DNA from: Candidatus Saccharimonadales bacterium
GTDB lineage: Bacteria; Patescibacteriota; Saccharimonadia; Saccharimonadales; UBA4665
NCBI GenBank assembly: GCA_036383395.1
Contig: DASVOI010000014.1
Location: forward strand, 329-64,328
Direction: 5' to 3'
Length of the DNA: 64,000 bases
Shown: piece after piece, positions 5,164 through 29,733 of the stretch
Layout: every line of letters starts with the position of its first letter
Position numbering within the stretch: position 1 is the first letter of the stretch
Made by a program: the position numbers and the translations under genes
Notes under the pieces: generated by a model
Database searches by the model: none
Seen by the model: the letters and a program-made list of their open reading frames with translations, nothing else
Told to the model about the DNA's origin: nothing

Positions 5164-5700
5164 ATGTTGACTGTTTTAGCAACAACCGAAGGAGCCTCGA
5201 GCCCGAGCCTATTCCAGGCTCTGGGCTTGAACGCGCAGCTCTTTATCGAGCAAGGTGTCGCCTTCCTTATTCTGGTGTTTGTGCTGGGCAAGTTTGTGTA
5301 TCCGGCGCTTGTGAAGGCTATTGACGACCGCCGGGCCGCTATCGAAGCCGGCTTGCAGGAAGCCAAAGACTCGCAAGAGGCGTTGGAAAAGGCCGAAGCC
5401 AAAGTGTCTGAGATGCTTGAAGAAGCTCGCAAGGAAGCCGACGAAATGCTCGCCCGCACCCATCAGGAGGCGGCTAGCGTCGTTGCCGACGCCGAGAGCA
5501 AGGCCAAGCAGCGCGCCGAGCAAATTGTGGCTGACGCCCGCCAACAGCTGGCAGTAGACGTCAGCAAAGCCCGCGAAGCCCTCAAGAAGGATACAGTGGA
5601 GCTGGTGGCGCTGGCCACCGAACGCGTCATTGGCGAGAAGCTTGACGACCGTAAGGATGCCGACCTGGTTAAGAAGGCACTTGCCGAGGAGAAGGCGTAA
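5164..5700 (+). CDS. atpF: ATP synthase Fo subunit b
   Basis: N-terminal TM, KFVYPALVKAIDDRR and a long coiled coil. Confidence 0.96.
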   Translation: MLTVLATTEGASSPSLFQALGLNAQLFIEQGVAFLILVFVLGKFVYPALVKAIDDRRAAIEAGLQEAKDSQEALEKAEAKVSEMLEEARKEADEMLARTHQEAASVVADAESKAKQRAEQIVADARQQLAVDVSKAREALKKDTVELVALATERVIGEKLDDRKDADLVKKALAEEKA

Positions 5701-6118: not shown

Positions 6119-7675
6119 ATGAGTGAACTTGCAATTCAAGAACTATCGGCTGAGCTGCGCAACGCCATCCAGTCTTTGCGCACCAACAAAGGCCTGGAAG
6201 AAGCCGGCATCGTTACCCGCGTGGGTGACGGCACGGCTTGGATTTACGGCCTGCGTAGCGCCGGTTATAACGAAGTAATCGAGATCGAGACTCGCAAGGG
6301 CGGCAAAGTAACCGCTTTTGCGCTGAACCTTTTGGAAGACGAAATCGGCGCCGTGATTTTGGGCGATGACGCCGAAGTTGTTGCCGGCGCTAAAGTAACG
6401 ATGACTGGGCACGTTTTGGACGTGCCGGTTGGCCCCGAACTGGTTGGCCGGGTGGTGAACCCGCTGGGCGAACCGCTGGACGGCAAAGGTCCGATCAAGG
6501 CCAAGCAGCGCGGCCTGCTGGAGCGCGCCGCCCCTGGTGTTATGGCCCGCAAGAGCGTGCACGAGCCGCTGATGACCGGCCTTGTTGCCATCGACGCCCT
6601 GACGCCGATCGGCCGCGGCCAGCGCGAACTTATTATTGGCGACCGTCAAACCGGCAAGACTGCCATCGCTGTCGATACCATGATTAACCAGGCCAAGCAA
6701 AAGACCGGCGTTATCAACGTGTACGTTGCCGTCGGCCAGAAGTTGTCTAAGGTTGCCGCTTTGGTAGAGCGCCTGAAGCGCGAAGGCGTGATGGACCAGA
6801 CCATTGTGGTGGCCACCAGCCCGTCCGACCCGGCTCCGCTGCTGTACTTGGCGCCGTACGCCGGTACTGCCATGGGCGAATACTTCCGCGACAACGGCGA
6901 GCACGCTCTGATCATCCACGATGACCTGACCAAGCACGCCGTGGCCTACCGCCAAATGTCGCTGCTGCTGCGCCGCCCACCGGGCCGCGAAGCCTACCCT
7001 GGTGATGTTTTCTACCTGCACTCCCGTTTACTGGAGCGCGCCGCCAAACTGAACGACGAACTCGGCGCCGGCAGTCTGACTGCCCTGCCGATCATCGAAA
7101 CGCAGGCCGGCGACATCTCTGCCTACATTCCGACGAACGTTATTTCCATCACCGACGGCCAGATCTTCCTGGAAACCAGCCTGTTCTACCAGGGTATCCG
7201 TCCGGCTATCTCCGTCGGTCTCTCGGTGTCGCGTGTGGGTGGCGCCGCTCAGACCAAGGCCGTCAAGAGCGTGTCCGGCGGCCTCAAGCTGAGCCTTGCC
7301 CAGTTCCGCGAACTAGCCAGCTTTGCTCAGTTTAGTTCCGACCTCGACCCCGAAACCAAGCAGTCCATTGAACGCGGCCAGCGCCTGACCGAATTGCTGA
7401 AACAGAAGCAGTACCAGCCGCTGTCTATCGCCGAGCAGGTCATCAGCCTGATGGCCGCCACGAAGGGCGCCTTCGATGGCGTGCCGGTCGAGAAGATTAA
7501 GGACGCTCAAGCCGAACTCATCTCCTTCATGGAAGACAAGCATGGCGCCGTGGTAAAAACCCTGAACAAGGGCGACAAGCCGACCGAAGACATCGAGAAA
7601 ACCGTGCTGGAGTCAGCCGAAAAGGTAGCCAAGAGCTACGCGGCTGCCGCTAAGCCGAAGAAGGCCAAGGAGTAG
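6119..7675 (+). CDS. atpA: ATP synthase F1 subunit alpha
   Basis: GDRQTGKT Walker [25 protein letters not shown] and [11 protein letters not shown]. Confidence 0.99.
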
Positions 7676-16853: not shown

Positions 16854-18734
16854 ATGAAAAAAATCACCGTAGTCATTCCCTGCTATAACGAAGAAAACGG
16901 CATCGCTGCCGTTATTCGGTCTTTCCCGCGCACCAACCTGCGCCGCCACGGCTATACACTCGAAGTTTTAGTAGTAGATAACAATTCAAAAGACCGCACG
17001 GCCGAAGTTGCCCGCAAGGCTGGCGCCCGCGTCATCCACGAACCTCGCCAAGGCAAAGGCAATGCCATCCGCACTGGCTTTTACAGCATTAGCGACGACA
17101 CCGACTATGTGGTGATGTGCGACGGCGACGACACCTACAAGGCGCACGAGATTCTGCGCCTGGTCGAGCCGCTGGATAGCGGCTTCTGCGATGTCGTTAT
17201 TGGCTCGCGTTTGAGCGGCAAGATTGCCAAAGGCTCGATGAAGGGTTTCAACCGCATTGGCAACTGGGGCTTTTCGTTTTTGGTGCGCTATGTATACGGC
17301 GTGAACGTGACCGACACGCTGACCGGCTACTTTGCCTGGAAGCGCGAAGTGGTGCAGCAGCTGCGCCAGCACCTTGAGTCCGGCGGCTTCTCTATCGAAA
17401 TGGAGATGATCACGCGCATGGCACGCATGGGCTTCGAGATGTACTCGGTGCCGATTACGTACGAGCCGCGCCTTGGCGAATCCAGCTTGCGCCCAGTGCA
17501 CGACGGCGTGCGTATCCTGCGCGAATTTGTGCGGCAGCTGCGCTGGCGCCCGCCCATGGAACGCGTGGCGTTTGTGAGCGATGCCGTCTGGCCCTACAAC
17601 AAGGGCGGCAAAGAGAAGCGTCTGCACGAAATCACCCGCCGGCTGGTCAAAGAAGGCCGCCAGGTAGATATTTACACCATGAAATGGTGGGATCAGCCGC
17701 AAAACACCGTAATTACCGAAGATGGCGTCTACCTGCACGCCGTGAGCCACTACCGACCGCTGTATAAGGGCGAGCGCCGCTCGATCACCCAGGCGTTGCT
17801 GTTTAGTGCCGGTTGCCTGCGGCTGGTATTCCGCAACTTCGACGTGATCGACGTCGACAGCATGCCGTTCTTCCCGCTGTTTGCCGTGCGCTTGGCCTGC
17901 TGGTTGCGCTTCAAGAAGATGCACGCTACTTGGCACGAAGTGTGGGGCACCGATTATTGGCGCCACTACCTCGGTGGTTTGGGCGGCCGGATTGGCGCCT
18001 TCACCGAATGGCTGGCCATGAAGACGCCGGACGTGGTTATTTCTAATTCGAACCACACCACCAAACGCCTGCTGCAAGCCGGCATGAAGAAGCAGATTGT
18101 AACCGTGCCGCTGGGCGTGGACGTTGAAACGCTTTTTGCCGTGGCACCGCACGAGCACCAGAGCGACATTATCTTCGCTGGCCGCCTGCTGCCCAACAAG
18201 AACGTTGAGCTGCTGGTGCGCGCCGTAAAGCTGGTCAGGCGCACCAAGCCGGATATCCGCTGCCTGATTGTTGGCAACGGCCCGGAGCGCGAGCGCCTGG
18301 AGGCGCTTACGGCCGAGCTCAAGCTCGAGAACAACATCACGTTTTTCAACTTCCTTGAAGACCACAACGAACTGTATGCGCTAATGAAGTCATCGAAGAT
18401 GTTCGTGCTGCCGTCGGTCCGCGAAGGGTTTAGCCTGGTATCGATCGAGGCCAATGCTTGCGGCCTGCCGGTAATTACTACCAGCCACGAGCACAACGCC
18501 GCGCGCGAGTTGATTATTGAAGGCCGCAACGGCTATTTAACCGACCTCGAAGTGAAGCACTTGGCAGCTCAGATTCGTATGGTCCTGCGCGCGAATGGCT
18601 TAGCCCCGCTTGAGGCGGTGGAACAGGACTTTGGCACCTACCGCTGGAGCCACGCCGCCGCTGCGGTTGAGCAGCTGATGGCCGGCAAGCAGCAGCAGCG
18701 CCCGGCGCATGCTGGCGCTGGCAAGGAGGCCTAA
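16854..18734 (+). CDS. GT2 (DPM1-like polyprenol-phosphate glycosyltransferase) - GT4 fusion
   Basis: VIPCYNEE, VDNNSKDRT and MCDGDDTY, then GGKEKR, FAGRLLPNKN and EGFSLVSIEANACG. Confidence 0.9.
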   Translation: MKKITVVIPCYNEENGIAAVIRSFPRTNLRRHGYTLEVLVVDNNSKDRTAEVARKAGARVIHEPRQGKGNAIRTGFYSISDDTDYVVMCDGDDTYKAHEILRLVEPLDSGFCDVVIGSRLSGKIAKGSMKGFNRIGNWGFSFLVRYVYGVNVTDTLTGYFAWKREVVQQLRQHLESGGFSIEMEMITRMARMGFEMYSVPITYEPRLGESSLRPVHDGVRILREFVRQLRWRPPMERVAFVSDAVWPYNKGGKEKRLHEITRRLVKEGRQVDIYTMKWWDQPQNTVITEDGVYLHAVSHYRPLYKGERRSITQALLFSAGCLRLVFRNFDVIDVDSMPFFPLFAVRLACWLRFKKMHATWHEVWGTDYWRHYLGGLGGRIGAFTEWLAMKTPDVVISNSNHTTKRLLQAGMKKQIVTVPLGVDVETLFAVAPHEHQSDIIFAGRLLPNKNVELLVRAVKLVRRTKPDIRCLIVGNGPERERLEALTAELKLENNITFFNFLEDHNELYALMKSSKMFVLPSVREGFSLVSIEANACGLPVITTSHEHNAARELIIEGRNGYLTDLEVKHLAAQIRMVLRANGLAPLEAVEQDFGTYRWSHAAAAVEQLMAGKQQQRPAHAGAGKEA

Positions 18735-20015
18735 ATGGGCTTGCTGCAGCGGTTGAAGCAGCATGTGCTGCATGACGATTTGCGCCGCAGCTCCACATTG
18801 TTGGTATTGAGCCAAGCGGTGAATGCGGCCGGTGCCTTTCTATTTTGGATGTTATGCGCGCGGCTTTTCCCGGCATCTCAGATCGGGTTAGCCACGGCTT
18901 TCATAAGCTATGGCGCGCTTGTTGCGGCGTTCACCCACCTAGGGCTGCCGGTGACCGTTTTGCGCTTTCTGCCCATGAGCAAGCGCCGCGGCGGATTGTT
19001 CAGTGCTGCTATGCTGCTGGTGACTGTTTGCTCGTTACTGGGCGGCGTGATAGCCTTAGCGGCCATCCGATTGCTGGCGCCCCGCCTTGTATTTGCCCAG
19101 CACGACGCGGGTCTGGCCCTGCTGTTGGTGCTTCTCGTGGCTGTTGGGGCGCTCGCCGGCCTCATGGATAGTGTGCTGACCGCCCTTAAGAAAAGCGGCT
19201 ATGTACTCGGCAAAACAGCGATAGTTACACTGCCGCGTCTGCTGTCAGTATTCACGGTAGCCGGTTTGGGTTTGGGCGGCCTTGTCGGCCTCTATACATT
19301 ATCGTTGCTGGGCGGCGTCGTATTCGCCGCGGTGTTAATTGCGCGCCGGCTGAAGCATTCCGGCTTGCTGTCGCCCGCATTTGGCGAGCTTTATCCTCAC
19401 CGGGCGTTTGCCGCCGCCAACTACTTCGGTAGCATGTTTGGCATTTTGCCCGGAACGCTGGTGCCGCTTATCGTGCTTGCCAAGTTGGGTCCAACACAAG
19501 CAGCGTTTTTTTATATGCCCATGCAGCTGGCGGTATTTTTGGGGATTATCGCAAGTTCCACCTGCCAAGCGCTGCTAGCGGCAGTGGCGCACGACGACAA
19601 TCCGGCCATGTACCGCGCGTATGTGGTGAAGGCGGCCCGGCACTTATACCGTCTGCTGATCCCGGCCGCGCTTTGCATGGTGCTGCTGGGTTGGGTTGTC
19701 TTGCATCTATATGGCGCCGCGTACGCAGCTCATGGCTACGCGCCGCTGCTCATCCTGTGCGCGGCCAGCTTGCTTGTCGGTCTGAACTGGTTGGGCGACG
19801 CCTGGCTGAACATACAGAAGCGCGGCCGCGCGTATTTTCTCATGAATGCTGTCAATGCTTTGGCTGTGGTTGCCGGAGTGTATGCTTTGGCTGGCCGCGG
19901 GCTAGTCGGCGTGGCCGCGGGCTGGCTGTTGGGCCAGACTGTGTCCGCCGCAATATATGTGGCACTCTTTGCGCGTTCTCAGCTGGCGATACTACTGGGC
20001 GTTAAGATTTCCTGA
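18735..20015 (+). CDS. Wzx/MOP-family oligosaccharide flippase
   Basis: About 12 hydrophobic segments; FLFWMLCARLF...IGLA...LG....LRFLP signature; located among GT genes. Confidence 0.85.
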   Translation: MGLLQRLKQHVLHDDLRRSSTLLVLSQAVNAAGAFLFWMLCARLFPASQIGLATAFISYGALVAAFTHLGLPVTVLRFLPMSKRRGGLFSAAMLLVTVCSLLGGVIALAAIRLLAPRLVFAQHDAGLALLLVLLVAVGALAGLMDSVLTALKKSGYVLGKTAIVTLPRLLSVFTVAGLGLGGLVGLYTLSLLGGVVFAAVLIARRLKHSGLLSPAFGELYPHRAFAAANYFGSMFGILPGTLVPLIVLAKLGPTQAAFFYMPMQLAVFLGIIASSTCQALLAAVAHDDNPAMYRAYVVKAARHLYRLLIPAALCMVLLGWVVLHLYGAAYAAHGYAPLLILCAASLLVGLNWLGDAWLNIQKRGRAYFLMNAVNALAVVAGVYALAGRGLVGVAAGWLLGQTVSAAIYVALFARSQLAILLGVKIS

Positions 20016-21067
20016 TAGAGCGCGTACGTTTTGGCGGCGATATCGTCCCATGACAGCGTGTCAGCATAGTGGCGGGCGGTATGGCCCATAGATTTAAGGT
20101 TGCCGGCTAGTGCTTGCTCGAGCGCGTGCTGTAGGGTGTGGCTGTCGGAGCCTGGTTGATAAAATATGCCGGCCCCGGCGGGTATTTCTTTTATGGCGCC
20201 CAATCGCGGCGCGACAAGCGGCTTGCCAAAGGTGGCTGCCAAGATGGCCGATCCGCTGGTAGTGATGGTCTGGAATGGCATGCAAACAATGTCGGCGGCG
20301 GCAAAGTAGTCGGCCACCTCTTCCTCGGGGACTGACTGATGAATAAAGGTGATGTTGCGGTACTCCGTTGCCGCGGCGGTAAGGCTACGGGCAAGGTCGG
20401 GAGGCTGGCATTCACCAGCGATCAGCAAGTGGTCGCCGGACTTGAGTTGCTTGAACGCCTCCAGCAACTTTTCTACGCCTTTGTAGGGGCGTATAAGCCC
20501 GAAAAATAATATAACCCGGGCATTTGGCGCGACGCCGAAGTGCTTGCGTGCCGCCACCCGGCCGAGGCGTGTCGGGTATACCCCGTCGTAGTTCCCATGC
20601 GGAATAACAACAGTGCGGCTGGTATCGGCACCGGCCTCGCTCAGCTGTCGCGTTGTTTGTGGCGAGTGCACAATAATGCGGTCAGCCATCGCTGACAGGG
20701 TGCGGGTTATGCGGATGCCATAACCGTCGCGGCCTTCGTGCCCCACGACGTTATGCGCTGTCCAGACCAGCCGCATGCCCAGCAGATGTATGATGTGCAG
20801 CAATGCTACCGTTTGCAAAAATGACACCCGGCGAAAAAAGCGACCGCGCAGTGGCAGCTCCAGGAAGTACAGCCAATGTATATGGACCAGGCGCGTTCCG
20901 ACCAGTCGGGCGGCTAGCAACCGAGCGACCGTATACGGCCAAGCCAGGGGCGCAAGGTAACGCGTCGGTGGCTGCACATAAGAGACCTCGGCTTTTGTGA
21001 AGGCCGTGTTTGTGTAAAGCAGACGCTGGTAAGGGTTGCTCGCTCGAGGAAGGACTAAAATTTTCAT
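19979..21067 (-). CDS. GT4 glycosyltransferase
   Basis: NPYQRLLY, HIHWL, WTAHN, IPHG, FFGLIRPYKG and TSGSAILA. Confidence 0.9.
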   Translation of the reverse strand: MKILVLPRASNPYQRLLYTNTAFTKAEVSYVQPPTRYLAPLAWPYTVARLLAARLVGTRLVHIHWLYFLELPLRGRFFRRVSFLQTVALLHIIHLLGMRLVWTAHNVVGHEGRDGYGIRITRTLSAMADRIIVHSPQTTRQLSEAGADTSRTVVIPHGNYDGVYPTRLGRVAARKHFGVAPNARVILFFGLIRPYKGVEKLLEAFKQLKSGDHLLIAGECQPPDLARSLTAAATEYRNITFIHQSVPEEEVADYFAAADIVCMPFQTITTSGSAILAATFGKPLVAPRLGAIKEIPAGAGIFYQPGSDSHTLQHALEQALAGNLKSMGHTARHYADTLSWDDIAAKTYALYQEILTPSSIAS

Positions 21068-24000
21068 TATTTATAGATAACAGTACCGCCACCGCTATAG
21101 ATGGTACTCTTGTAATTATCTAGGAAGCCGGCTGGATATGCAAAGCCAGCGGCCGTGTCGTTGTACTTGTTATAGGCGGTGCCAGTTTCGGTGTTAACGC
21201 TGGAACGGAAGGCGTAGCCGCCTGGCGTGACACGGCCAGGCAGTATGCTTGGAATGGCTTTGTCGGTGCTCATTGTGCTGTATGCGTAGGCGTTCAGTCG
21301 GGTATAGCGGTCGTAGTTTACGACAGCGTTCGGGTTTTTATGACTCTGTAGCCAGTTAACGGCCGATATATCGGCGTCGTTCGTGTAATAGCGGTTGTAT
21401 GTCTCGTTGTTGTTGGAAAGATTGATGTCGCCAGCCCCAAAGCCAAGTTGGTTGACCAGTCCGGTCGTCGAGGCACCATATGCCAAGACTAGCGCAACTA
21501 TAGCCGGCCACGCCCACGAGGATTTTTTTCGCAACAGTGCCTGGGTGCCCAGTACAGGAGCGACAGCTAACACGACCAATAACTGTTGGTAGAGGCGGTC
21601 GAGATTATATTTGTCCGAAAGGAATGGCACGGCAGTGAGTGTCAGCAGCATTACCGCTCCTGCTGCGGCTAGCGCACCCAATTCTATAGATAGGTCGCCC
21701 CGCCAGGCCCGCAGCACCAGTACGCCCACGCCGACGAGGAAGACCAGCTTCACTAGCAGCGGTACTGCCAGGCGCGAAGCGGCTAGCAAGCCCTTGCCTG
21801 CCGTGGAGGTGGCAGTCGCACCCCTTTCTTTTACGGGTATGGTCGGGTACTGTTGATAAATATGCTGACTGTAAGCGTCAGGGGCAAGGTTTTGCTGCTG
21901 TAGCGTTGCTATCGAGAAATCGCCGCTGCCCTTGTGCGTGAACGAGAAGGTGTTGGTGACAAATGTGCTGCGCTCGCTGCTGTGCAGCAGTTCGCTGGCC
22001 CGACTAAGGTGATGTAGTGCCGTACTGGCCTTATACGCGAGCACGGTCGGAGCGTTTGTGAGGGGGGCGTACCAGATGACTCCAAAAAGCAGTAGACTGC
22101 CAATGACCGCCGGCCGCAATACAATGCCAAGCGTGCCTTGACCGGCTCGGCCGCGTAGTCGCGGCCACACTTTAGGCGCAGCATAGACGGTAAGTGCGGC
22201 GGCGGCAAGCATGCTCAGCCCGACAATAGAGGTTGAGTAGTGCGACACGACCATGCCCATGCCAAAGGCGACGATGAGCAGTTTGCGCGTACGCACGGGC
22301 AGCGCATCTATTGCCGCGACAGCGAAGATCAGGCAGAAGAATACAAAGGCTATCTCCTGGCGGATAAGCGCCGGGAACTGCAACACGAATTGGAATTGTA
22401 GTGCGAAGAATAGTGCGGCGACAAATGCGGCTTTTGGGGAAGCCGCCTTGAAGCCGCGCGTCACTTTATATACCAACAACGGCACAACCGCCGCAAAGAG
22501 CTGCATCGCCAACTTGAACACGTACTCGGCGGGCACATGCAGCAAATGCGCTAAAACCGTCGGCAATACTGTGATACTCAAGCAGGCGTTGTAGGTGTTG
22601 TGTATGGCGTTGGCCTGCCAAATGCCCTGCTGCAGCGTTGCGGTGAATACCTGGAACTCCTGGTGGATGTCGTAGCCAATGAGGTGGTTGCTGCGCAGGC
22701 TGACACTTAACAGCAGACCGGCGCTGATACCCCATAGGCTAGCGGCGATTTCGCCGCCGGTGGGCCGACGCCGCAACGCCACTAAATAGATCTGCCAAAC
22801 AAGCATGATAATCAGGGTGCCAATCGCTAAAGCGCCACCGGCATGATTGTTAAGGCGCTCAGCGCCAAAAGCGGCGAGCGGCGGGAACGCTAGTGGCACG
22901 GCGATGCGCCAGTGACGGCTCAGCGTGGGGACGATTACTCGCGGCAGTACTGCCCCCCTGGCCCAGGCTCGGGCCAGCAGCACAATTTCTGCGGCATAGA
23001 ATACGACTACCACCGGGCCGGCGCTGAGGGTGTGCCAGCCCGCTATGATGCCAACGGTGTTGAGTGCCCATCCCAGCCCAAGCAATCCTAGTAAACTAAG
23101 GCCGACCGAAAGTCCCAGCCACTCCATGAGCCGGAATCCGCGGCTGCGTTTTAGCTGCGCGGCCACCAGCGTGCCGAATAGCAGGCCAAAGTTAAGCAAG
23201 TGCAGGCCCACGGCTAAAGGCGTACTTTGCAATACAAACTGCGTCAGCAGTGAGCCGCCGAGTAGTGCCAGCACCCAACCCGGTAGGTTTGTGCTGCGCT
23301 TGTGGCTGCGTACGGCCGTAAATTTATCCAGTTGCCCGTTAATGCTGGCCGCTACAGATTGCCAGGTGTGCCCGGCGCGGATGTAGGCCAGCCCGGCTGC
23401 GCCCAACTCGTCGCGGCGCGTTTTGTTGTTTAGCAGAGCGATCAGCTTTTTGGCCAGGTCGGCACTGTTTTCTGGCTTGGCCGCTACCACGACACCTTTG
23501 AAATGATCGCTTAGACCGGCGATGTCGCTGACCACTACCGCCCGACCGCACGCCAAATACTCGTACACCTTAAACGGCGAGTTAAGCCCCGCGCGTTCCT
23601 TCGTGTAGTAGGCCAGGCATACATCGCAGGAGTTGAGGAAGGCCGGCACTTGCGAGTGGTCGATGCTGCCCAGGAACTCTACATTGCGTTCCAGGCCCAG
23701 GCTCGCGGCCATTTTTTGGAGTTCCGGTAATTGCTCGCCGTCACCCGCTATTATCATTTTGGCGTTCGGCAACTGCCGAACGATCTGCTTCATGGCGGTA
23801 ACGGCGTAGGCCATGCCTTCCCAAGATGTCAGGTGGCCCACGAAACCGATGCGTAGTTCATCGGTGGAGCGGTTGATCTGCATCGGCCGTAACGTGCTGG
23901 TGTTTACGCCGTTTTCGACCACCGTAATTTTGTTGCGGGGCAGCCTGTATTTGCGCATGAGGTGCCGCTTCAGGCCATCGGTTACCGTGAAGATATGCTG

Positions 24001-25584
24001 CGCCTGGTTGTACGCCGCGCCCTCAATGATGCGGAAAATACGGACGCGCTTCCATAGCCCACGCAGCGGCAGACGAGCGTCGGCGAGCGTCTCTTCTTCG
24101 ATTACGCCATTTGTTTCAACAAACAGCGGCAGCCGGCGCAGTTTGCTAATAAGAGTGGGGGCGATCATGAATGGTTCTTGGCGAACGTAGAGGATGCCAT
24201 TGCGCCGTGCGCGGCTAAAGGCATAGAGCGCAGCGAACAGTTTTGCCTGATAAATGATCGGAGCGATAGACTTTAGCATAGTTGACATGCGCACGCGGCG
24301 GAACCCGAAGGCGGTGTCCGCCTGCTGAGCAAGCAAGGGTGCGAACAATGTAACGTCCCGGCCTTGGGCCTGGAGATTTTGACAGACTTCATAGACATGA
24401 ATAGAGGGCGCCAAGCTGTTGTCGATGGCAAAATTAGCAGCGTACGCCACTGGCCGCGCCATCGCTTGTGCAAATAGGGCGTCGGTTTTGCGGGCGCTTG
24501 TTTCCCAAGTCAGGGTTTCCTGCACCCGTTCGTAGCCGGCTTCGCCCAGCTTGGACAAGCTGCTGCTTCGTAGCGCCTTGGTTATGGCTTTAGCCAGCGT
24601 GCGGGGTTTGCCCGGTGCCGTTAACAGCCCGTCCACACCGTCGCGTATCAGGGTGCCGAGCGCACCAATGTTGGCGCCCAACACAGGAGTTTTACAGGCC
24701 CACGCCTCTGGGAGTACTGTGGGAAAGGCGTCGTTGGCCGTCGTGGGGTATGCAACCAGAAGCGCGGCTGACTGGATGAGCTTGTATTTCGCCCCGCCCT
24801 CTACGAAGCCATGGAATGTCACGTTTTTCTCGAGTCCCAGCTCCGCGACACGGGCTTCGTAGCGTGTCCGTGCGTTGCCGTCTCCCAAAACGTGGAGTTC
24901 TACTTTTGGTTCGCCCCTTTTGGATAGACGCACCGCTTCCAGCAGCTCATCGAGACCTTTCCAGGAATGGCTACGGTCCAGGCTGCCCACGAAGACAAGC
25001 CGTTTGCTGTGGCGTTTAGGCTTGTCGGCCGGTATGTCTGCCGGATCAATGGCGTTATAAACAACGGCCGCTTTGGCCTGCGCAATTTTGGGCAATTGTT
25101 CCTTCACGTATTCGGAAACGGCAATTACCTTGGTCGCGCGGCGGAATGTGCGCTTTTGTACCGCTTCGGTTGCGCGCGTCAGCAGGCCCATGGCGGTCGA
25201 GCCTTTTTTGCGCAGCGTGGCGGCATGATATGTCACCACCGTAGGGATTTTCCCGGCGGCACGAACAGCAACGTCCGCCAGGCCGGGGACCGGAGCGTGA
25301 GCATTAATAAGGTCGGGTTGTTCGGCGCGGATCAATCGTTTTAGTTGGAAATACCACATGGGGTGGAACGGTGTGTTGGAGATCCGGCCCAGAATTGGCA
25401 GGCGGACGACCCGGAGGCCTTCTACCGTTTCGTGCTTTGTGCCTTTGCTGTCGTGGTTGGTGGTGACGACAACCACATCATCGCCATTAGCCTGAAGCTG
25501 CTTGGCCAGCTGTAGCGCGTAGTTTTCCAGGCCGCCGATTTTCGGGGCGAAGTACGGCGTTACAAACATGACTTTGCGGCTCAT
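21067..25584 (-). CDS. GT4-GT4-DUF2206-like multi-TM fusion protein (1505 aa)
   Basis: Two GT-B units (YFAPKIGGLE...WKGL...AFPTVLPEAW; FVGHL...SPFKVYEYLACG) followed by about 13 TM helices with LIGYDIHQEF, RQEIA and VVSHYST. Confidence 0.8.
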   Translation of the reverse strand: MSRKVMFVTPYFAPKIGGLENYALQLAKQLQANGDDVVVVTTNHDSKGTKHETVEGLRVVRLPILGRISNTPFHPMWYFQLKRLIRAEQPDLINAHAPVPGLADVAVRAAGKIPTVVTYHAATLRKKGSTAMGLLTRATEAVQKRTFRRATKVIAVSEYVKEQLPKIAQAKAAVVYNAIDPADIPADKPKRHSKRLVFVGSLDRSHSWKGLDELLEAVRLSKRGEPKVELHVLGDGNARTRYEARVAELGLEKNVTFHGFVEGGAKYKLIQSAALLVAYPTTANDAFPTVLPEAWACKTPVLGANIGALGTLIRDGVDGLLTAPGKPRTLAKAITKALRSSSLSKLGEAGYERVQETLTWETSARKTDALFAQAMARPVAYAANFAIDNSLAPSIHVYEVCQNLQAQGRDVTLFAPLLAQQADTAFGFRRVRMSTMLKSIAPIIYQAKLFAALYAFSRARRNGILYVRQEPFMIAPTLISKLRRLPLFVETNGVIEEETLADARLPLRGLWKRVRIFRIIEGAAYNQAQHIFTVTDGLKRHLMRKYRLPRNKITVVENGVNTSTLRPMQINRSTDELRIGFVGHLTSWEGMAYAVTAMKQIVRQLPNAKMIIAGDGEQLPELQKMAASLGLERNVEFLGSIDHSQVPAFLNSCDVCLAYYTKERAGLNSPFKVYEYLACGRAVVVSDIAGLSDHFKGVVVAAKPENSADLAKKLIALLNNKTRRDELGAAGLAYIRAGHTWQSVAASINGQLDKFTAVRSHKRSTNLPGWVLALLGGSLLTQFVLQSTPLAVGLHLLNFGLLFGTLVAAQLKRSRGFRLMEWLGLSVGLSLLGLLGLGWALNTVGIIAGWHTLSAGPVVVVFYAAEIVLLARAWARGAVLPRVIVPTLSRHWRIAVPLAFPPLAAFGAERLNNHAGGALAIGTLIIMLVWQIYLVALRRRPTGGEIAASLWGISAGLLLSVSLRSNHLIGYDIHQEFQVFTATLQQGIWQANAIHNTYNACLSITVLPTVLAHLLHVPAEYVFKLAMQLFAAVVPLLVYKVTRGFKAASPKAAFVAALFFALQFQFVLQFPALIRQEIAFVFFCLIFAVAAIDALPVRTRKLLIVAFGMGMVVSHYSTSIVGLSMLAAAALTVYAAPKVWPRLRGRAGQGTLGIVLRPAVIGSLLLFGVIWYAPLTNAPTVLAYKASTALHHLSRASELLHSSERSTFVTNTFSFTHKGSGDFSIATLQQQNLAPDAYSQHIYQQYPTIPVKERGATATSTAGKGLLAASRLAVPLLVKLVFLVGVGVLVLRAWRGDLSIELGALAAAGAVMLLTLTAVPFLSDKYNLDRLYQQLLVVLAVAPVLGTQALLRKKSSWAWPAIVALVLAYGASTTGLVNQLGFGAGDINLSNNNETYNRYYTNDADISAVNWLQSHKNPNAVVNYDRYTRLNAYAYSTMSTDKAIPSILPGRVTPGGYAFRSSVNTETGTAYNKYNDTAAGFAYPAGFLDNYKSTIYSGGGTVIYK

Positions 25585-26072
25585 TCTGCGCTCCGATTAG
25601 CCCAGTAAGATAAGCTCAAATGTTCACCACCAGAGGTGATGCTGAGAGCCATCTTGCTGCGGCTGCCGCCATCTATTGGGTAAAAAGGAATAATCACACT
25701 TTTATGCTCGGCGGCACGTAAGGACACCGTGCCGTCGGCTAGGGTCACTAGCGGACTGTTTTGGACGTCAAACTGTGTCACTGTGTAGCGGTAGGCGGTG
25801 GAGATGCCCTCGTGGTTCTCGAGCGTCACCGTCATGTATTGACGTTTACTGGGCGTGTAGTGCTTGGGCAGGTTTGAGGGCTGTGTAAAGTACGCTGTGC
25901 TGAAGGTCTGCCCTTGGGGCAGCACATGCCAGTGACGCAGCGCACCTGATAGATCAGACGAGCCAACGCTCAAAAAAAAGAGGATCACAATTGTTGCGGC
26001 AAGGACGGCAGCGCGGCTCGGGCGCGATGCACGGCGCAGAATGACTCGGAGTGTGGGGCGGACTTGAGACAT
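25581..26072 (-). CDS. DUF1616-like membrane-anchored Ig-fold protein
   Basis: N-terminal TM then FSTAYF...VTLENHEG...YRYTV pattern; overlaps the start of the DUF2206-like fusion. Confidence 0.55.
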   Translation of the reverse strand: MSQVRPTLRVILRRASRPSRAAVLAATIVILFFLSVGSSDLSGALRHWHVLPQGQTFSTAYFTQPSNLPKHYTPSKRQYMTVTLENHEGISTAYRYTVTQFDVQNSPLVTLADGTVSLRAAEHKSVIIPFYPIDGGSRSKMALSITSGGEHLSLSYWANRSAE

Positions 26073-26159
26073 ACATTTGACCTATCGTTTATTTGATTGC
26101 ATTATCGCATAAATTACAGAGAAAGTCTAGCATTTTTACAATTTTATTATATGGCTGCT

Positions 26160-28457
26160 TTACTGCATTTGAACGAATAGGTTGGTGCCGGCGGTACCAT
26201 TTGCCGCGTTGCCGCCCGTGCCGCAGCCTGCTGCGCCAAGGCCTCCGGCCAGATTTAGCACGCCGCTATTGATTACCGGATTAACGCTGTAAACAAGTAC
26301 GGCACCCCCTCCACCTCCTCCGCCTCCGCCGCAGTTCCCGACAGTTGGTGCAAAGCCGTTGCCGCCCCTGGCGGTTAGTACGCCAGTGTTTATAAAGGTC
26401 CGGGCGAAGATAATGATAAGTGCTCCGCCTGAGCCGCCTGCCCCGCCTTTGTTGGTGCCGTCACCACCTCCGCCCGAGCCGCCCGAGCCGCCGCTGACCA
26501 CAAATGTTGCTGCGGCAAATCCGACCGCACCTGAGAGGCATGCTTGTGCATTGCGCAGCATCCAGTTCACGCTGGATCGCGGCGATTGTTGCGCGCCTCC
26601 GGCCCCTGCCGCGCCGTTGCCGCCAGCACCACCCCGACCTACGCCAAACCCACCGATATTACCTTGGCTGCCTGCCGCCGTATTACCTGCTCCGCCCAAT
26701 TGACCGCCGCCCAGCGCGCTTTGCGTGGTTGCCGGTGTGGCGACTGAGCCGGTAGCATCGTTACCATTAGCGTCGATGGTGCCACTATTGGTGATGGTGC
26801 CTGTAGAATAGAGGCGGAAGCTGCTGCACCGTAGCGTAATACCCGACGATATGGTGAGCGATGTAACGAGTGCGTCACGGGTCATCGTATACGTGGAGCC
26901 TGCTAGCGACGCCCACTGCACTGTAGTGGTGCCGTCCAGGGCGGCTGCGCCGTCGCTGCCGTCGCCGAAGGTGCCAAGGGCGAAGGTGCCATGGGGCGCG
27001 TTAGTGTTTATCCACATGCCACTGCTAGCATTGTAGGCAATCGTCTGCCCGTCACTAAGCGTGCCGAGCTGCATGTCGCTCAGGTTGGCCAGCGTATTAC
27101 CCGGATTGCGCTGGATGCCGTTAGCGTGTATGCCGTTGGCAAGCAGCACGGAGTCCGCCGAAATGTCGCCGAGCATGGTGTACCCTGTTTGGGCAGAAGT
27201 AGTGAAGCGGATATCGTTGCCATCTGATCCTCCGGCTAGGCGCAAGCCGTAACCCTGATTGCCTATCAGATTGCCCGATTGATACCCTTGCAGCGCCGTA
27301 AAGTCTATAACACAGTGCGATGCGTTCCAAAGTTCAACGGCGGCGTATTGTCCGGCAGCATTCCCTTGCCCGTGATTATTGCTGTCGGCCACGCAGCTCT
27401 GCAGGATACTGCCGTTTGTGTTGTGTAGGTAAAACCCCTGGGCAAAGTTATTCTGAGCGGTACAGCTACTAAGTAATGCGTAAGCGAATGAATTCTCAAT
27501 GCGAAAGCCGGCCCCGCGCGAAGCGTCTACTTTCCCGCTGTCCCAGGCCTTGCAGTTGCTGAGCATAATGTCGCCGTTATCAAGGTAAAAACCCTCCAGT
27601 CCGGCATTCTCCGAACTGCAGTTAACTATGAAAGTGTCGTAGGTGGTATTAAAACTGTTGCCCCAGCACCCCGAAACATACACATTTTCGAAGCGCATTT
27701 CGCTGCGGCCGGAAGCATTGATGCCATCGTCATGGCAGTAACGAACGCGGACGTTTTTAACATGCTGATGCGTATCGAACCAGGCATCATTGGCGGCGCC
27801 CGTATTGGTTGGATTGGTGTTAAATTTAATGCCGTGTGAGGTTGCGCTTTGCCCGCTGCGGTTTCCGTCGATAGTCAGGTCCCATACACCCACGAATTCG
27901 CCGTTCGCCCCGATGCCGTCGCTGCTTACATGATTGGTGACGACACTTTTATTGGCGTTGCTATTCATCGTAATGACAGTGGCATACATGCCCGCTCCTT
28001 GCAGCACTACCCCGTCGTAGAGCACCAGGCCGGTTACGCGCGTCAGGCCGCGTGGCACATACACAATACCCCCGCTGCCGCCGGCTACAGCGGTGCTGTT
28101 ATATGCGGCATTAATGGCGGCTTGGATTGCCGTGGTGTCATCGCTGGAGCCGTCGATTTTGGCGCCATAGTCGCGTACATCATACACGATCTGTCGTGTT
28201 GACCACTGTTCCCATTGTGCCGAAACGGCGCCGCCGCTGAAGGCAGAACTGGAAACGTGCGCTGCCTTGCAGCGCCAACTGGCACCATCATATGAGACGA
28301 TGTCGTTGACGCTATAGACAGTATCGACAGACCAAACACCGCGTGCGGTAATGCCAGACCGCAAACTGCCGTCTTCATTGTGTGCTACTCTGAGAAACTC
28401 ATTTAAAATGCTTCCCCAGTTATTGTTGTCGCCGCCAGGCGTCGGAAGACGAGACAT
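26160..28457 (-). CDS. Tailspike-like surface protein: CBM5/12-like module, pectate-lyase-3 cap, right-handed beta-helix and Gly-rich C-terminal domain
   Basis: MSRLPTPGGDNNNWGSILNEFL N-terminus; WSVDTVYSVNDIVSYDGASWRC; YDVRDYGAKIDGSSDDTTAIQAAINAA; beta-helix repeats; GGGGGGGG tail. Start 28457 follows GAGGAGG. Confidence 0.8.
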   Translation of the reverse strand: MSRLPTPGGDNNNWGSILNEFLRVAHNEDGSLRSGITARGVWSVDTVYSVNDIVSYDGASWRCKAAHVSSSAFSGGAVSAQWEQWSTRQIVYDVRDYGAKIDGSSDDTTAIQAAINAAYNSTAVAGGSGGIVYVPRGLTRVTGLVLYDGVVLQGAGMYATVITMNSNANKSVVTNHVSSDGIGANGEFVGVWDLTIDGNRSGQSATSHGIKFNTNPTNTGAANDAWFDTHQHVKNVRVRYCHDDGINASGRSEMRFENVYVSGCWGNSFNTTYDTFIVNCSSENAGLEGFYLDNGDIMLSNCKAWDSGKVDASRGAGFRIENSFAYALLSSCTAQNNFAQGFYLHNTNGSILQSCVADSNNHGQGNAAGQYAAVELWNASHCVIDFTALQGYQSGNLIGNQGYGLRLAGGSDGNDIRFTTSAQTGYTMLGDISADSVLLANGIHANGIQRNPGNTLANLSDMQLGTLSDGQTIAYNASSGMWINTNAPHGTFALGTFGDGSDGAAALDGTTTVQWASLAGSTYTMTRDALVTSLTISSGITLRCSSFRLYSTGTITNSGTIDANGNDATGSVATPATTQSALGGGQLGGAGNTAAGSQGNIGGFGVGRGGAGGNGAAGAGGAQQSPRSSVNWMLRNAQACLSGAVGFAAATFVVSGGSGGSGGGGDGTNKGGAGGSGGALIIIFARTFINTGVLTARGGNGFAPTVGNCGGGGGGGGGAVLVYSVNPVINSGVLNLAGGLGAAGCGTGGNAANGTAGTNLFVQMQ

Positions 28458-28718
28458 ACGTTTAATAGACCCCTCCTCGAGGGTTCGTCTGTTTTTTACC
28501 GGCCCGACAGAGCATACGCGCAAGTCGTTCGAGCTTCAAGGCAAAACAAACAACACCCATCCCTATCAGTGGTTGTAATATTTACTTTGAATCAGTGGAT
28601 TGTATATTTTATATATTTTTGCCGGGACCACCCCAATAACTTGCACGCCGCTAACGTGAGCAATTATTCCCCTTTTCTCTTATGCTTATGACTAAGCATT
28701 ATAGCAATTTTAGGATCA

Positions 28719-28734
28719 TGTGAGAAATATCACA
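28719..28734. promoter_or_regulatory. Perfect Crp/CAP box TGTGA-GAAATA-TCACA
   Basis: 10/10 consensus with ATTT flank, between divergent extended -10 promoters (TGC-TATAAT minus 28698-28706; TGG-TATACT plus 28758-28766). Confidence 0.75.
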
Positions 28735-28773
28735 TTTACAATCGCGCGCCGCCAGGCTGGTATACTGGTGAGT

Positions 28774-29733
28774 ATGAAAATTGTTGTAACCGGCGGCGCC
28801 GGCTATATTGGTAGTGTTGTTACCGCCCATCTTCTCGAAGCCGGGCATGAGGTTGTGGTAATCGACAATTTGTCGCAAGGCCACCGCGATGCCGTGCCTG
28901 AAGGCGCGACGCTTATTGAGGCGGATATTCGCGATTTTGCGCGTGTCATTAAGCCGGAAGACGGCGTAGACGTTATGCATTTTGCTTCGTATATTGCGGC
29001 CGGGGAATCAATGCGCGAGCCGGGCAAGTACTGGCAAAACAACACCGCCGCATCACTGGAACTGTTGGAGGCCGTGCGCGCCTTAGGTGTGCCGCGGTTT
29101 ATTTTTTCATCGACGGCGGCCGTGTATGGCAATCCCAAGGCGGTGCCTATTACTGAGGACGCTTCTGTGCAGCCAACCAGCACCTACGGCATGACCAAGC
29201 TGGCGCTTGATATGGCGATAACCAGCTATTCGCAGGCGCACGGCCTGGCGGCAACCAGCCTCCGCTATTTCAACGTGGCCGGAGCATATGGCAAATATGG
29301 TGAGCGCCATCCCGAGGAAACGCACATCATTCCCTTGGCGCTAGCGGTCGCCGCCGGCAAACGGCCGGCCTTCCTGCTCTATGGTGACGACTACGACACG
29401 CCGGATGGGACTTGCATCCGGGATTATATTCATGTGGCCGACTTGGCGCGGGCCCACCTTTTGGCGTTGGATCATGTAGAATCGGGCAGGCACGATATCT
29501 ACAACTTGGGTAATGGTAGAGGTTTTTCGAACAAGGAGGTCATCGCCGCCGTGGAGCGCGTGACTGGTGCGGGGTTGACGATAGAGATGCGCCCGCGGCG
29601 TGAGGGCGACCCTGCCATGCTCATTGCCTCGAGCCAACGAGCTCAAGACGTGCTTGGCTGGCGGCCGCAGAAGGCGTCACTAGATGATATGGTCGGCGAT
29701 GCCTGGGCATTTTTCCAGGCCCAATCGCGATAA
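28774..29733 (+). CDS. galE: UDP-glucose 4-epimerase
   Basis: GGAGYIGS, FSSTAAVYG, YGMTK, LRYFNVAGA and DGTCIRDYIHV. Confidence 0.96.
   Translation: MKIVVTGGAGYIGSVVTAHLLEAGHEVVVIDNLSQGHRDAVPEGATLIEADIRDFARVIKPEDGVDVMHFASYIAAGESMREPGKYWQNNTAASLELLEAVRALGVPRFIFSSTAAVYGNPKAVPITEDASVQPTSTYGMTKLALDMAITSYSQAHGLAATSLRYFNVAGAYGKYGERHPEETHIIPLALAVAAGKRPAFLLYGDDYDTPDGTCIRDYIHVADLARAHLLALDHVESGRHDIYNLGNGRGFSNKEVIAAVERVTGAGLTIEMRPRREGDPAMLIASSQRAQDVLGWRPQKASLDDMVGDAWAFFQAQSR

Follow-up and report, generated by a model that had tools for sequence, protein, structure and literature searches.

A tailspike-like beta-helix gene in a conserved glycan gene string of a Saccharimonadales genome, and the co-occurrence of its N-terminal module with the Tat exporter

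The tailspike-like gene and its protein

The window analysed here is a stretch of 64,000 nucleotides (nt) from contig DASVOI010000014.1 (positions 329 to 64,328, forward strand) of the Candidatus Saccharimonadales assembly GCA_036383395.1, and its subject is a minus-strand gene for a tailspike-like protein of 765 amino acids (aa), referred to below as the target. Two results carry the argument. The gene order around the target shows it to be the first gene of a conserved, predicted envelope-glycan operon, and the family of proteins that share its 35-residue N-terminal module (the motif family) tracks the twin-arginine translocation (Tat) exporter in Patescibacteria, both statistically and by position. 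The genome is a 1.06-Mb metagenome-assembled genome (MAG), 93% complete and in 51 contigs. Searches for 16S rRNA genes had no hit, and the best homologs of the target bear the labels Candidatus Saccharimonadales or Patescibacteria. The parts of the target gene are as follows.

26160..28457 (stop codon included), minus strand: tailspike-like protein gene, 765 aa (open reading frame list and translation; start from ortholog and paralog N-termini)
28353..28457, minus strand: N-terminal 35-aa module MSRLPTPGGDNNNWGSILNEFLRVAHNEDGSLRSG (four copies in the genome; profile search)
28209..28334, minus strand: CBM5/12 carbohydrate-binding module, aa 42-83 (Pfam PF02839)
27108..28181, minus strand: right-handed beta-helix with pectate-lyase-3 cap, aa 93 to ~450, with a conserved polar groove (PF12708, PF13229)
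26988..27095, minus strand: fibre-type connector, aa 455-490, NLSDMQLGTLSDGQTIAYNASSGMWINTNAP (read from the sequence)
26163..26975, minus strand: Gly-rich C-terminal domain, aa 495-765 (kept in every full-length ortholog)
28472..28476, minus strand: GGAGG, Shine-Dalgarno-like, 14 nt 5' of the ATG (sequence)
28698..28726, minus strand: promoter-like site TTCTCA-17-TATAAT, TG-extended, in the divergent region common to the target and epimerase genes (consensus scan only)

A single minus-strand open reading frame (ORF), 26160-28523, spans the gene. We place the true start at the ATG at 28457, because all orthologs and paralogs open with M-S/A/P-R-L-P; translation from this codon gives the 765 aa, beginning MSRLPTPGGDNNNWGSILNEFL. 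Three Pfam matches were found, all of which exceed the curated gathering cut-offs: CBM_5_12 at aa 42-83 (E = 3e-9, 37.2 bits against a cut-off of 26.2), the pectate-lyase-like PF12708 at aa 93-307 (E = 8e-16, 59 bits against 27) and Beta_helix PF13229 at aa 230-381 (E = 2e-9, 37.8 bits against 25.9). The aromatic residues of the CBM5/12, including W42 and Y48, are kept in the ortholog alignment. No hydrophobic segment was detected in the first 80 aa, where the maximum Kyte-Doolittle value over 15 aa is 0.69; the N-terminus therefore lacks a hydrophobic region (h-region) of the Sec or Tat type. A first-pass annotation, made from the letters of the DNA, had described a protein with these three domains and no signal peptide, and it was right in both respects.

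Two other parts of that description survive in a modified form. The proposed fibre linker (LxxLSDM..GQTIAYN..W.N) lies at a position that is occupied by DUF5907 or BppL_N in homologs and paralogs (Pfam), but in the target itself the connector has no Pfam match and its PHROG match (13853) is weak; a PHROG search with the target protein returned no family match to the whole protein. The Gly-rich domain is real, conserved and confidently modelled, as the AlphaFold2 (AF2) model of aa 470-765, which covers the C-terminal domain and part of the connector, has a predicted local distance difference test score (pLDDT) of 88.6 and a predicted TM-score of 0.83, but it corresponds neither to PF21722 (Gly_rich_2) nor to a fold in the PDB. 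The C-terminal 339 aa gave no Pfam match up to E = 10, PF21722 included, and the best result of a PDB fold search with the C-domain model was the phage PP01 gp38 tip at a non-significant E of 3.4. PF21722 does match the partial homologs P0018 and P0046, unlike the target; BLASTP against homologs bearing Gly_rich_2 found no similarity, and an assignment to this family was rejected. As modelled, the Gly-rich part presents itself as a novel end domain. The AF2 monomer model of the whole protein has a pLDDT of 67, and that of the N-terminal module is below 50.

Searches with the beta-helix led to polysaccharide-active enzymes and to phage spikes. A profile of the orthologs matched the AlgE4 A-module in the PDB (2PYG, E = 1.2e-27) and also the AlgE6 A-module, and AlgE4 and AlgE6 ranked first in a Foldseek search with the AF2 model (E = 6e-11). 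The next Foldseek matches were ORF18 of Geobacillus virus E2, the CBA120 tailspikes (TSP2) and RbmB, the lyase of Vibrio polysaccharide (VPS), and many tail spikes and fibres were returned from a viral structure library. Comparison of 12 homologs of 40-79% identity revealed invariant polar residues on successive rungs of the helix (D228, H230, R251, D274, K303, Q335-N337, D358-N360, Q390, Q393 and Q401), and E253 is nearly invariant in the groove. Such a groove fits what would be expected of a sugar-binding or catalytic site.

The glycan gene string around the target

The genes that accompany the target in the window are listed below (GT, glycosyltransferase).

25581..26072, minus strand: DUF1616-like protein with one N-terminal transmembrane segment and an outer domain of ~120 aa, 87 nt downstream of the target (weak Pfam match)
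21067..25584, minus strand: GT4-GT4-DUF2206 fusion, 1505 aa (Pfam)
19979..21067, minus strand: GT4 glycosyltransferase, final co-directional gene (Pfam; kept in orthologous loci)
18735..20015, plus strand: polytopic 426-aa protein in the flippase position, convergent (ORF list; no NCBIfam match)
16854..18734, plus strand: GT2-GT4 fusion, its GT2 of the AglJ/DPM1-like polyprenyl-phosphate hexose synthase type (NCBIfam TIGR04182 at 1e-55, NF041391; kept in orthologous loci)
28720..29733, plus strand: NAD-dependent sugar epimerase/dehydratase, divergent (Pfam)

The target had been taken for a stand-alone gene, which does not hold, as it heads a conserved co-directional string of glycan-synthesis genes. 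Four orthologous loci (L005-L008), from relatives of 44-78% identity and on contigs of 57 kb to 1.3 Mb, share the order AddA-like helicase, (epimerase), beta-helix gene, DUF1616-like, GT4-DUF2206, GT4, flippase and GT2-GT4. The epimerase gene is present in the closest relative, L005, and absent from L006-L008. The DUF1616-like gene occupies the same position in all orthologous loci, and in the window its stop overlaps the start of the GT4-GT4-DUF2206 gene; the ortholog of the polytopic 426-aa gene in L006 and L007 has a weak Polysacc_synt match.

A second, independent instance of this linkage was found in another Saccharimonadia family (genomes G169 and G328), whose DUF2206 proteins are about 30% identical to that of the target lineage. 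Here, the operon runs GT2/GT4, GT4, DUF2206, flippase and then tandem genes that combine the motif with PF12708 and are packed stop to start; a relative of the DUF1616-like gene opens the G328 operon, and the DUF2206 protein of G169 also matches PMT_2, a GT-C-type transferase family (Pfam).

G169, C76:256330-266138 (L121): four tandem motif+PF12708 genes of ~670 aa each, directly after the flippase of the DUF2206 operon
G328, C8:24500-32400 (L122): two tandem motif+PF12708 genes of ~670 aa each, directly after the flippase of the DUF2206 operon

These tandem paralogs recall the multiple AlgE paralogs of Azotobacter.

A large module family shared with phage tail proteins

A 38-aa profile of the N-terminal module was read exhaustively against 1.84 billion protein representatives; it replaced a word-indexed search with residues 1-42, which had returned two proteins only, the index being too coarse for 42 aa. 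The profile matched 6,471 protein clusters at E <= 1e-3 and 4,461 at E <= 1e-10, and in 147 of the 150 best matches the module starts at residue 1-4. The partner domains of the family include DUF5907, BppL_N, PF12708, Beta_helix, GDSL esterases, Gly_rich_2, NosD and CBM5/12, together with K1-lyase_C, GH26, GH43, GHL15, a lectin fold and collagen. No entry in Pfam, PHROG, NCBIfam or the PDB covers the module, and a PDB search with its profile gave nothing meaningful. The motif is thus as real and recurrent as first proposed, with four copies in this genome and thousands of clusters beyond it, and both the profile and the list of partners agree with the earlier expectation of a shared motif: it is common to many proteins with varied carbohydrate-active or fibre domains. 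Its label as a motif of the candidate phyla radiation type has to be given up: although enriched in Saccharimonadia, the module also occurs in other phyla and on phage tail proteins. The 523-aa metagenome protein P0051 carries three tandem modules ~40 aa apart before a GHL15-like domain, and P0053 carries two copies. Such repeats, which a mere targeting peptide would not form, indicate that the module can serve as a structural unit in multiple copies.

The module begins at residue 1 of proteins of the Streptomyces phages BRock, GiJojo, Alone3, LuckySocke and pSt2308, and it heads proteins at 26 IMG/VR loci on contigs whose G+C content ranges from 34% to 70%. At four of these (L011, L017, L025 and L027), the motif gene directly follows the tape-measure gene, and the motif protein of L011 matches a PHROG tail-spike family. 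The module is thus an N-terminal element of phage fibres or spikes, and its simplest role would be docking on a carrier structure. In the BE-type Streptomyces phages, the motif genes stand in the tRNA array, outside the main tail module. The annotated start of BRock gp186 ('collagen triple helix repeat', L010:6791-7738) overlaps a tRNA-Lys gene; its true start is probably the Met at 7001, where the conserved module begins.

A further question is whether the target belongs to a phage or to the cell. The target is flanked by helicase-nuclease, epimerase and glycosyltransferase genes; no neighbour of the target gave a PHROG structural match, no phage genes were found near the target or its paralogs, and the phage tail neighbours have no homologs in this 93%-complete genome. 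A set of 78 genomic module loci came mostly from Saccharibacteria, with a few MAGs of Chloroflexota, Acidimicrobiia and Myxococcales, and no phage neighbour recurred across them. Compared with a virion-associated tailspike, the target has the N-terminal anchor in common with phage tail proteins and lies outside any phage or prophage module. The first-pass annotation had proposed a tailspike-like protein of phage derivation, domesticated rather than part of a prophage and with no phage genes nearby. All of this agrees with what we found: the module heads phage tail proteins, the fold matches CBA120 TSP2 and E2 ORF18, the PHROG search of the neighbours was empty, and the chromosomal context is conserved in a genome in which the tail partners have no homolog.

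Co-occurrence of the module with Tat

Apart from the 'YG' proteins described below, TatC was the only recurrent protein neighbour of the module, present at 10 of the 78 loci and often in the order tatA-tatC-motif gene. Whether module and exporter also go together across genomes can be read from two samples with one genome per species. Among 301 Patescibacteria, the motif was found in 11 and TatC in 15; 11 genomes had both, none the motif only, four TatC only, and 286 neither. The corresponding figures for 151 Saccharimonadia were 45 with the motif and 46 with TatC, divided into 44 with both, one with the motif only, two with TatC only and 104 with neither. The Fisher p values (4e-17 and 2e-34, respectively) are uncorrected for kinship, and kin in these samples are not independent. 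The motif and TatC fractions are, however, patchy and yet identical inside at least seven Saccharimonadia families, with f1 (2/5), f2 (5/24), f10 (3/8), f138 (7/10), f141 (2/7) and f144 (2/6), and with f135, where both are 0/25 and two TatC matches fell below the cut-off; in f9 they are 9/21 and 10/21. Agreement of this kind, repeated from family to family, speaks for many joint gains or losses. By coordinate arithmetic, a motif gene lies at most 5 kb from tatC in 25 of the 44 double-positive genomes and at most 2 kb in 17, in at least 11 families.

The only tatC of the present genome lies outside the window, on the minus strand at the edge of a contig (C27:92-715), and since a motif gene directly follows tatC in many relatives, the assembly gap beyond it may harbour a fifth one. 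A 207-aa ORF of unassigned function on the minus strand of contig C15 (start at base 5416 of the reverse complement) has a textbook Tat signal, MSRRNFLRMAVAVPVGAAAAMV, with the motif SRRNFLR.

Two other features of these loci concern possible partners. Small secreted proteins with A/S-x-YG-x-G-x-YG(-x-C) just past the signal adjoin tatA or tatC and motif genes at seven loci (L042, L048, L062, L066, L080, L082 and L091); divergent proteins of this kind recur near module loci in the 78-locus comparison. At a locus labelled Anaerolineae (L077:4571-4948), the gene immediately 5' of the motif gene encodes a YG protein with a canonical TRRAFLK Tat motif, possibly a hitch-hiker partner or an anchor for motif proteins. 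The usual length of TatC is about 250 aa; the Saccharibacteria TatC proteins of L042, L048, L066, L074, L080 and L100 are ~300-400 aa long, with Pro/Ala-rich C-terminal tails that end in repeated S-[IL]-D-G-[FI].

Other module proteins in the genome

Searches with phmmer revealed three further proteins of this genome (97, 270 and 284 aa) that open with the same ~35 residues and continue with tail-fibre motifs. Their neighbours are ordinary genes, namely those for an L,D-transpeptidase, a DMFA2_C/DUF4082 protein and type IV pilus components, for a VirD4/TrwB-like ATPase, and for an SBP_bac_5 protein. On contig C6 (6222-16074), the 284-aa paralog is followed by a 1157-aa DMFA2_C/DUF4082 protein, the L,D-transpeptidase gene lies upstream, and pilB-like, pilC-like and prepilin genes are found ~5 kb further on. 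The distance of 5 kb between one paralog and pilB/pilC/pilin is the single, weak hint in favour of the earlier idea that the motif attaches proteins to a pilus. On the minus strand of contig C44 (46718-48294), the 97-aa motif protein consists of the module and a GQVLT...W collar. Its gene shares 22 nt with the start of a 434-aa ORF that has no family match, and the pair adjoins the TrwB/VirD4-like ATPase gene. The two may represent one fibre gene that was split or frameshifted, or else a fibre made of two parts.

Discussion

We read the target as a protein that descends from a phage tailspike or fibre, is now owned by the cell, and is folded in the cytoplasm, exported by Tat and active on the glycan of the neighbouring operon, and we put the probability of this reading at about 0.5. 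The target would fold, and probably trimerise, in the cytoplasm as phage spikes do. The folded protein would then cross the membrane with the help of Tat, either because the module is recognised in some unconventional way or because a partner carries the protein along, and the N-terminal module would hold it at the cell surface. There, it would bind, trim or modify a polysaccharide or glycoconjugate produced by the neighbouring genes, as WceF, AlgE and RbmB do.

Several observations weigh against this reading. The module has a single arginine (Arg3) in place of the twin arginine and no h-region, so that the canonical Tat motif S/T-R-R-x-F-L-K is absent; it sits on phage virion proteins, which need no export; and it is repeated internally in P0051, in triple tandem. 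Thus, the module behaves as a structural or docking unit, and a plain cleavable signal peptide was rejected on the same grounds, together with the missing hydrophobic core. The earlier notion that the motif relates to export gains indirect support, since genomes with motif genes almost always have tatC as well and the two are often neighbours, but the motif is not a classical signal. The target gene itself does not adjoin tatC, and we also rejected the idea that Tat is kept solely for fibres, as the genome encodes at least one classical cargo, the protein with the SRRNFLR signal. Other points bear on the link to the glycan. The target is rare, with no ortholog among 150 evenly sampled Saccharimonadia species, and its CBM5/12 would suit the cell's own glycan no better than host peptidoglycan or chitin-like glycans. 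A promoter-like TTCAAA-16-TATAAT on the minus strand (26146-26173) overlaps the target stop codon; beside a presumed co-transcription with the target, the DUF1616-like and GT genes may therefore also have a promoter of their own. No terminator-like site was found on the minus strand between the target and those genes.

The likeness to AlgE also has its limits. In a hidden Markov model alignment, the AlgE4 residues that we take to be catalytic (Y149, D152 and H154 of the YGFDPHE motif, and D178) fall on D244, N247, S249 and T272 of the target, which vary among orthologs, and the invariant F-D228-x-H230 sits one rung before this register. The target is therefore not demonstrably an epimerase. 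Of the features of an AlgE-type mannuronan C5-epimerase, the fold and sequence likeness is present, the catalytic Tyr-Asp-His-Asp set is not kept in register, and no C-terminal RTX-type R-modules were found with Pfam (up to E = 10) or in a PDB fold search.

A wider form of our reading is offered tentatively, at odds that we consider to lie somewhat against it. The 35-residue module might mark a new class of signal-less Tat cargo, made up of pre-folded, trimeric, phage-derived fibres and spikes. These would be recognised directly by the unusually long TatC, or would hitch-hike on a small YG partner that bears a signal, and the surface of Patescibacteria would display them as exchangeable tools for binding and cutting glycans, with the target as the member devoted to the DUF2206 glycan.

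Could the substrate be the polysaccharide of a host instead? A surface fibre acting as a host-directed adhesin or depolymerase, with the glycan operon as a mere neighbour or a decorator of the fibre, would account for much of what is seen in the module family. Its partner domains (beta-helices, SGNH esterases, GH26/GH43, lectin folds and collagen stalks) form the kit of phage receptor-binding proteins and depolymerases, and CBM5/12 modules typically bind polymers of N-acetylglucosamine. Genomes carry 2-9 varied motif copies, some in tandem, as is typical of host-range genes and comparable to the MAT fibres of Bdellovibrio (PMC10769870), and adhesins of cultured Nanosynbacter bind host peptidoglycan and wall polysaccharide (bioRxiv 10.64898/2026.10.06.756255). 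We nevertheless consider this explanation rather unlikely, as a host-directed enzyme does not predict linkage to the same glycan operon in two lineages that are ~30% identical in DUF2206, and as the target is well conserved among orthologs, its distal domain included, and is not diversifying. The position of the target within an envelope-glycan operon makes the cell's own glycan at least as good a candidate substrate as a host capsule.

The operon also admits a reversed relationship, in which the beta-helix fibre is the acceptor and is glycosylated by the polyprenyl-phosphate-sugar synthase, the GT4 enzymes, the flippase and the GT-C-like DUF2206 protein, in the manner of the archaeal Agl and actinobacterial Ppm/Pmt systems. 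The GT2 does match AglJ and dolichyl-phosphate-hexose transferases, the relative of DUF2206 matches PMT_2, a protein O-mannosyltransferase family, and in G169 and G328 the fibre genes lie immediately 3' of the flippase. Yet wall glycans, too, are polymerised or ligated by GT-C enzymes, and the target has no evident acceptor region rich in Ser/Thr or in sequons. Both the invariant Asp/His/Arg/Lys/Gln/Asn groove and the strong match to AlgE suggest that the fibre has its own site for sugar binding or catalysis. Together, these points make the role of a glycoprotein cargo improbable. Less probable by far is a phage leftover with no role in the cell, be it a stranded prophage remnant or a tail protein for a phage encoded elsewhere. 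The module is common to bona fide phage tail genes and its distribution among genomes is patchy, as this explanation would have it; however, the target has an intact frame, is conserved in sequence down to 44% identity and keeps one fixed chromosomal site, and neither phage genes near it nor homologs of the tail partners in the genome were found.

Saccharibacteria live attached to other bacteria and have genomes of about 1 Mb, and to our knowledge little has been established on how their surface is built and remodelled, or on how proteins without a signal are exported from them. The target joins three subjects that bear on this matter: a fibre family that stems from phages and comprises thousands of proteins without annotation, a little-studied 'archaeal-style' glycan pathway with DUF1616 and DUF2206, and the Tat exporter. 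The co-occurrence of motif and Tat (44 of 45 genomes) yields a clean and testable prediction on how pre-folded phage-like fibres reach the cell surface. If it is true, this link would define a new class of Tat cargo and offer a way into host recognition and the remodelling of the envelope across the candidate phyla radiation. The N-terminal module merits a family model in its own right, because many phage tail proteins carry it.

Comparison with known systems

The best profile and fold matches of the target helix are the AlgE4 and AlgE6 A-modules of Azotobacter vinelandii (PDB 2PYG, 2PYH and 5LW3) and the alginate epimerase/lyase 8JA4. The AlgE enzymes are secreted although they lack a signal peptide, remodel the producer's own polymer, exist as several paralogs and have Gly-rich C-terminal parts. 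The target differs from them in that the catalytic set is not kept in register, and neither RTX R-modules nor any sign of type I secretion were found. RbmB of Vibrio cholerae (PDB 9OZL and 9OZD) resembles the target in fold, weakly (E about 2e-5), with no sequence relation and with another set of domains. It is a beta-helix polysaccharide lyase encoded among matrix genes, and it cuts the producer's own VPS.

Phage tailspikes and fibres such as CBA120 TSP2 and E2 ORF18 share the fold and the order of modules with the target, and BRock gp186, GiJojo gp34 and the IMG/VR tail genes share its N-terminal 33-35 residues; unlike these, the target is found at a fixed chromosomal site in a glycan operon, in a genome without the tail partners.

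A bacterial counterpart is WceF of Pantoea stewartii, a tailspike-like trimer encoded in the cluster for the exopolysaccharide stewartan, which is exported by Tat in the folded state, acts on the glycan of its own cell and affects chain length (PMC7949094). Like the target, it is the product of a tailspike-like gene with a right-handed beta-helix that lies inside a bacterial glycan cluster. WceF has a canonical, cleavable Tat signal, in contrast to the target, which has none and carries instead the 35-aa module of phage fibres, a CBM5/12 and a Gly-rich end domain; the likeness drawn here is one of architecture.

The MAT proteins of Bdellovibrio bacteriovorus are phage-like trimeric fibres encoded by a multigene family, with an invariant N-terminal part and varied distal domains; their N-terminus consists of a Sec signal peptide followed by a beta-rich domain of ~130 aa (PMC10769870). 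In the target family there is no signal, the common part is ~35 aa long, and the link is to Tat; the two are likened here by organisation. What they have in common is a multigene family of fibres that is owned by a cell living on other bacteria.

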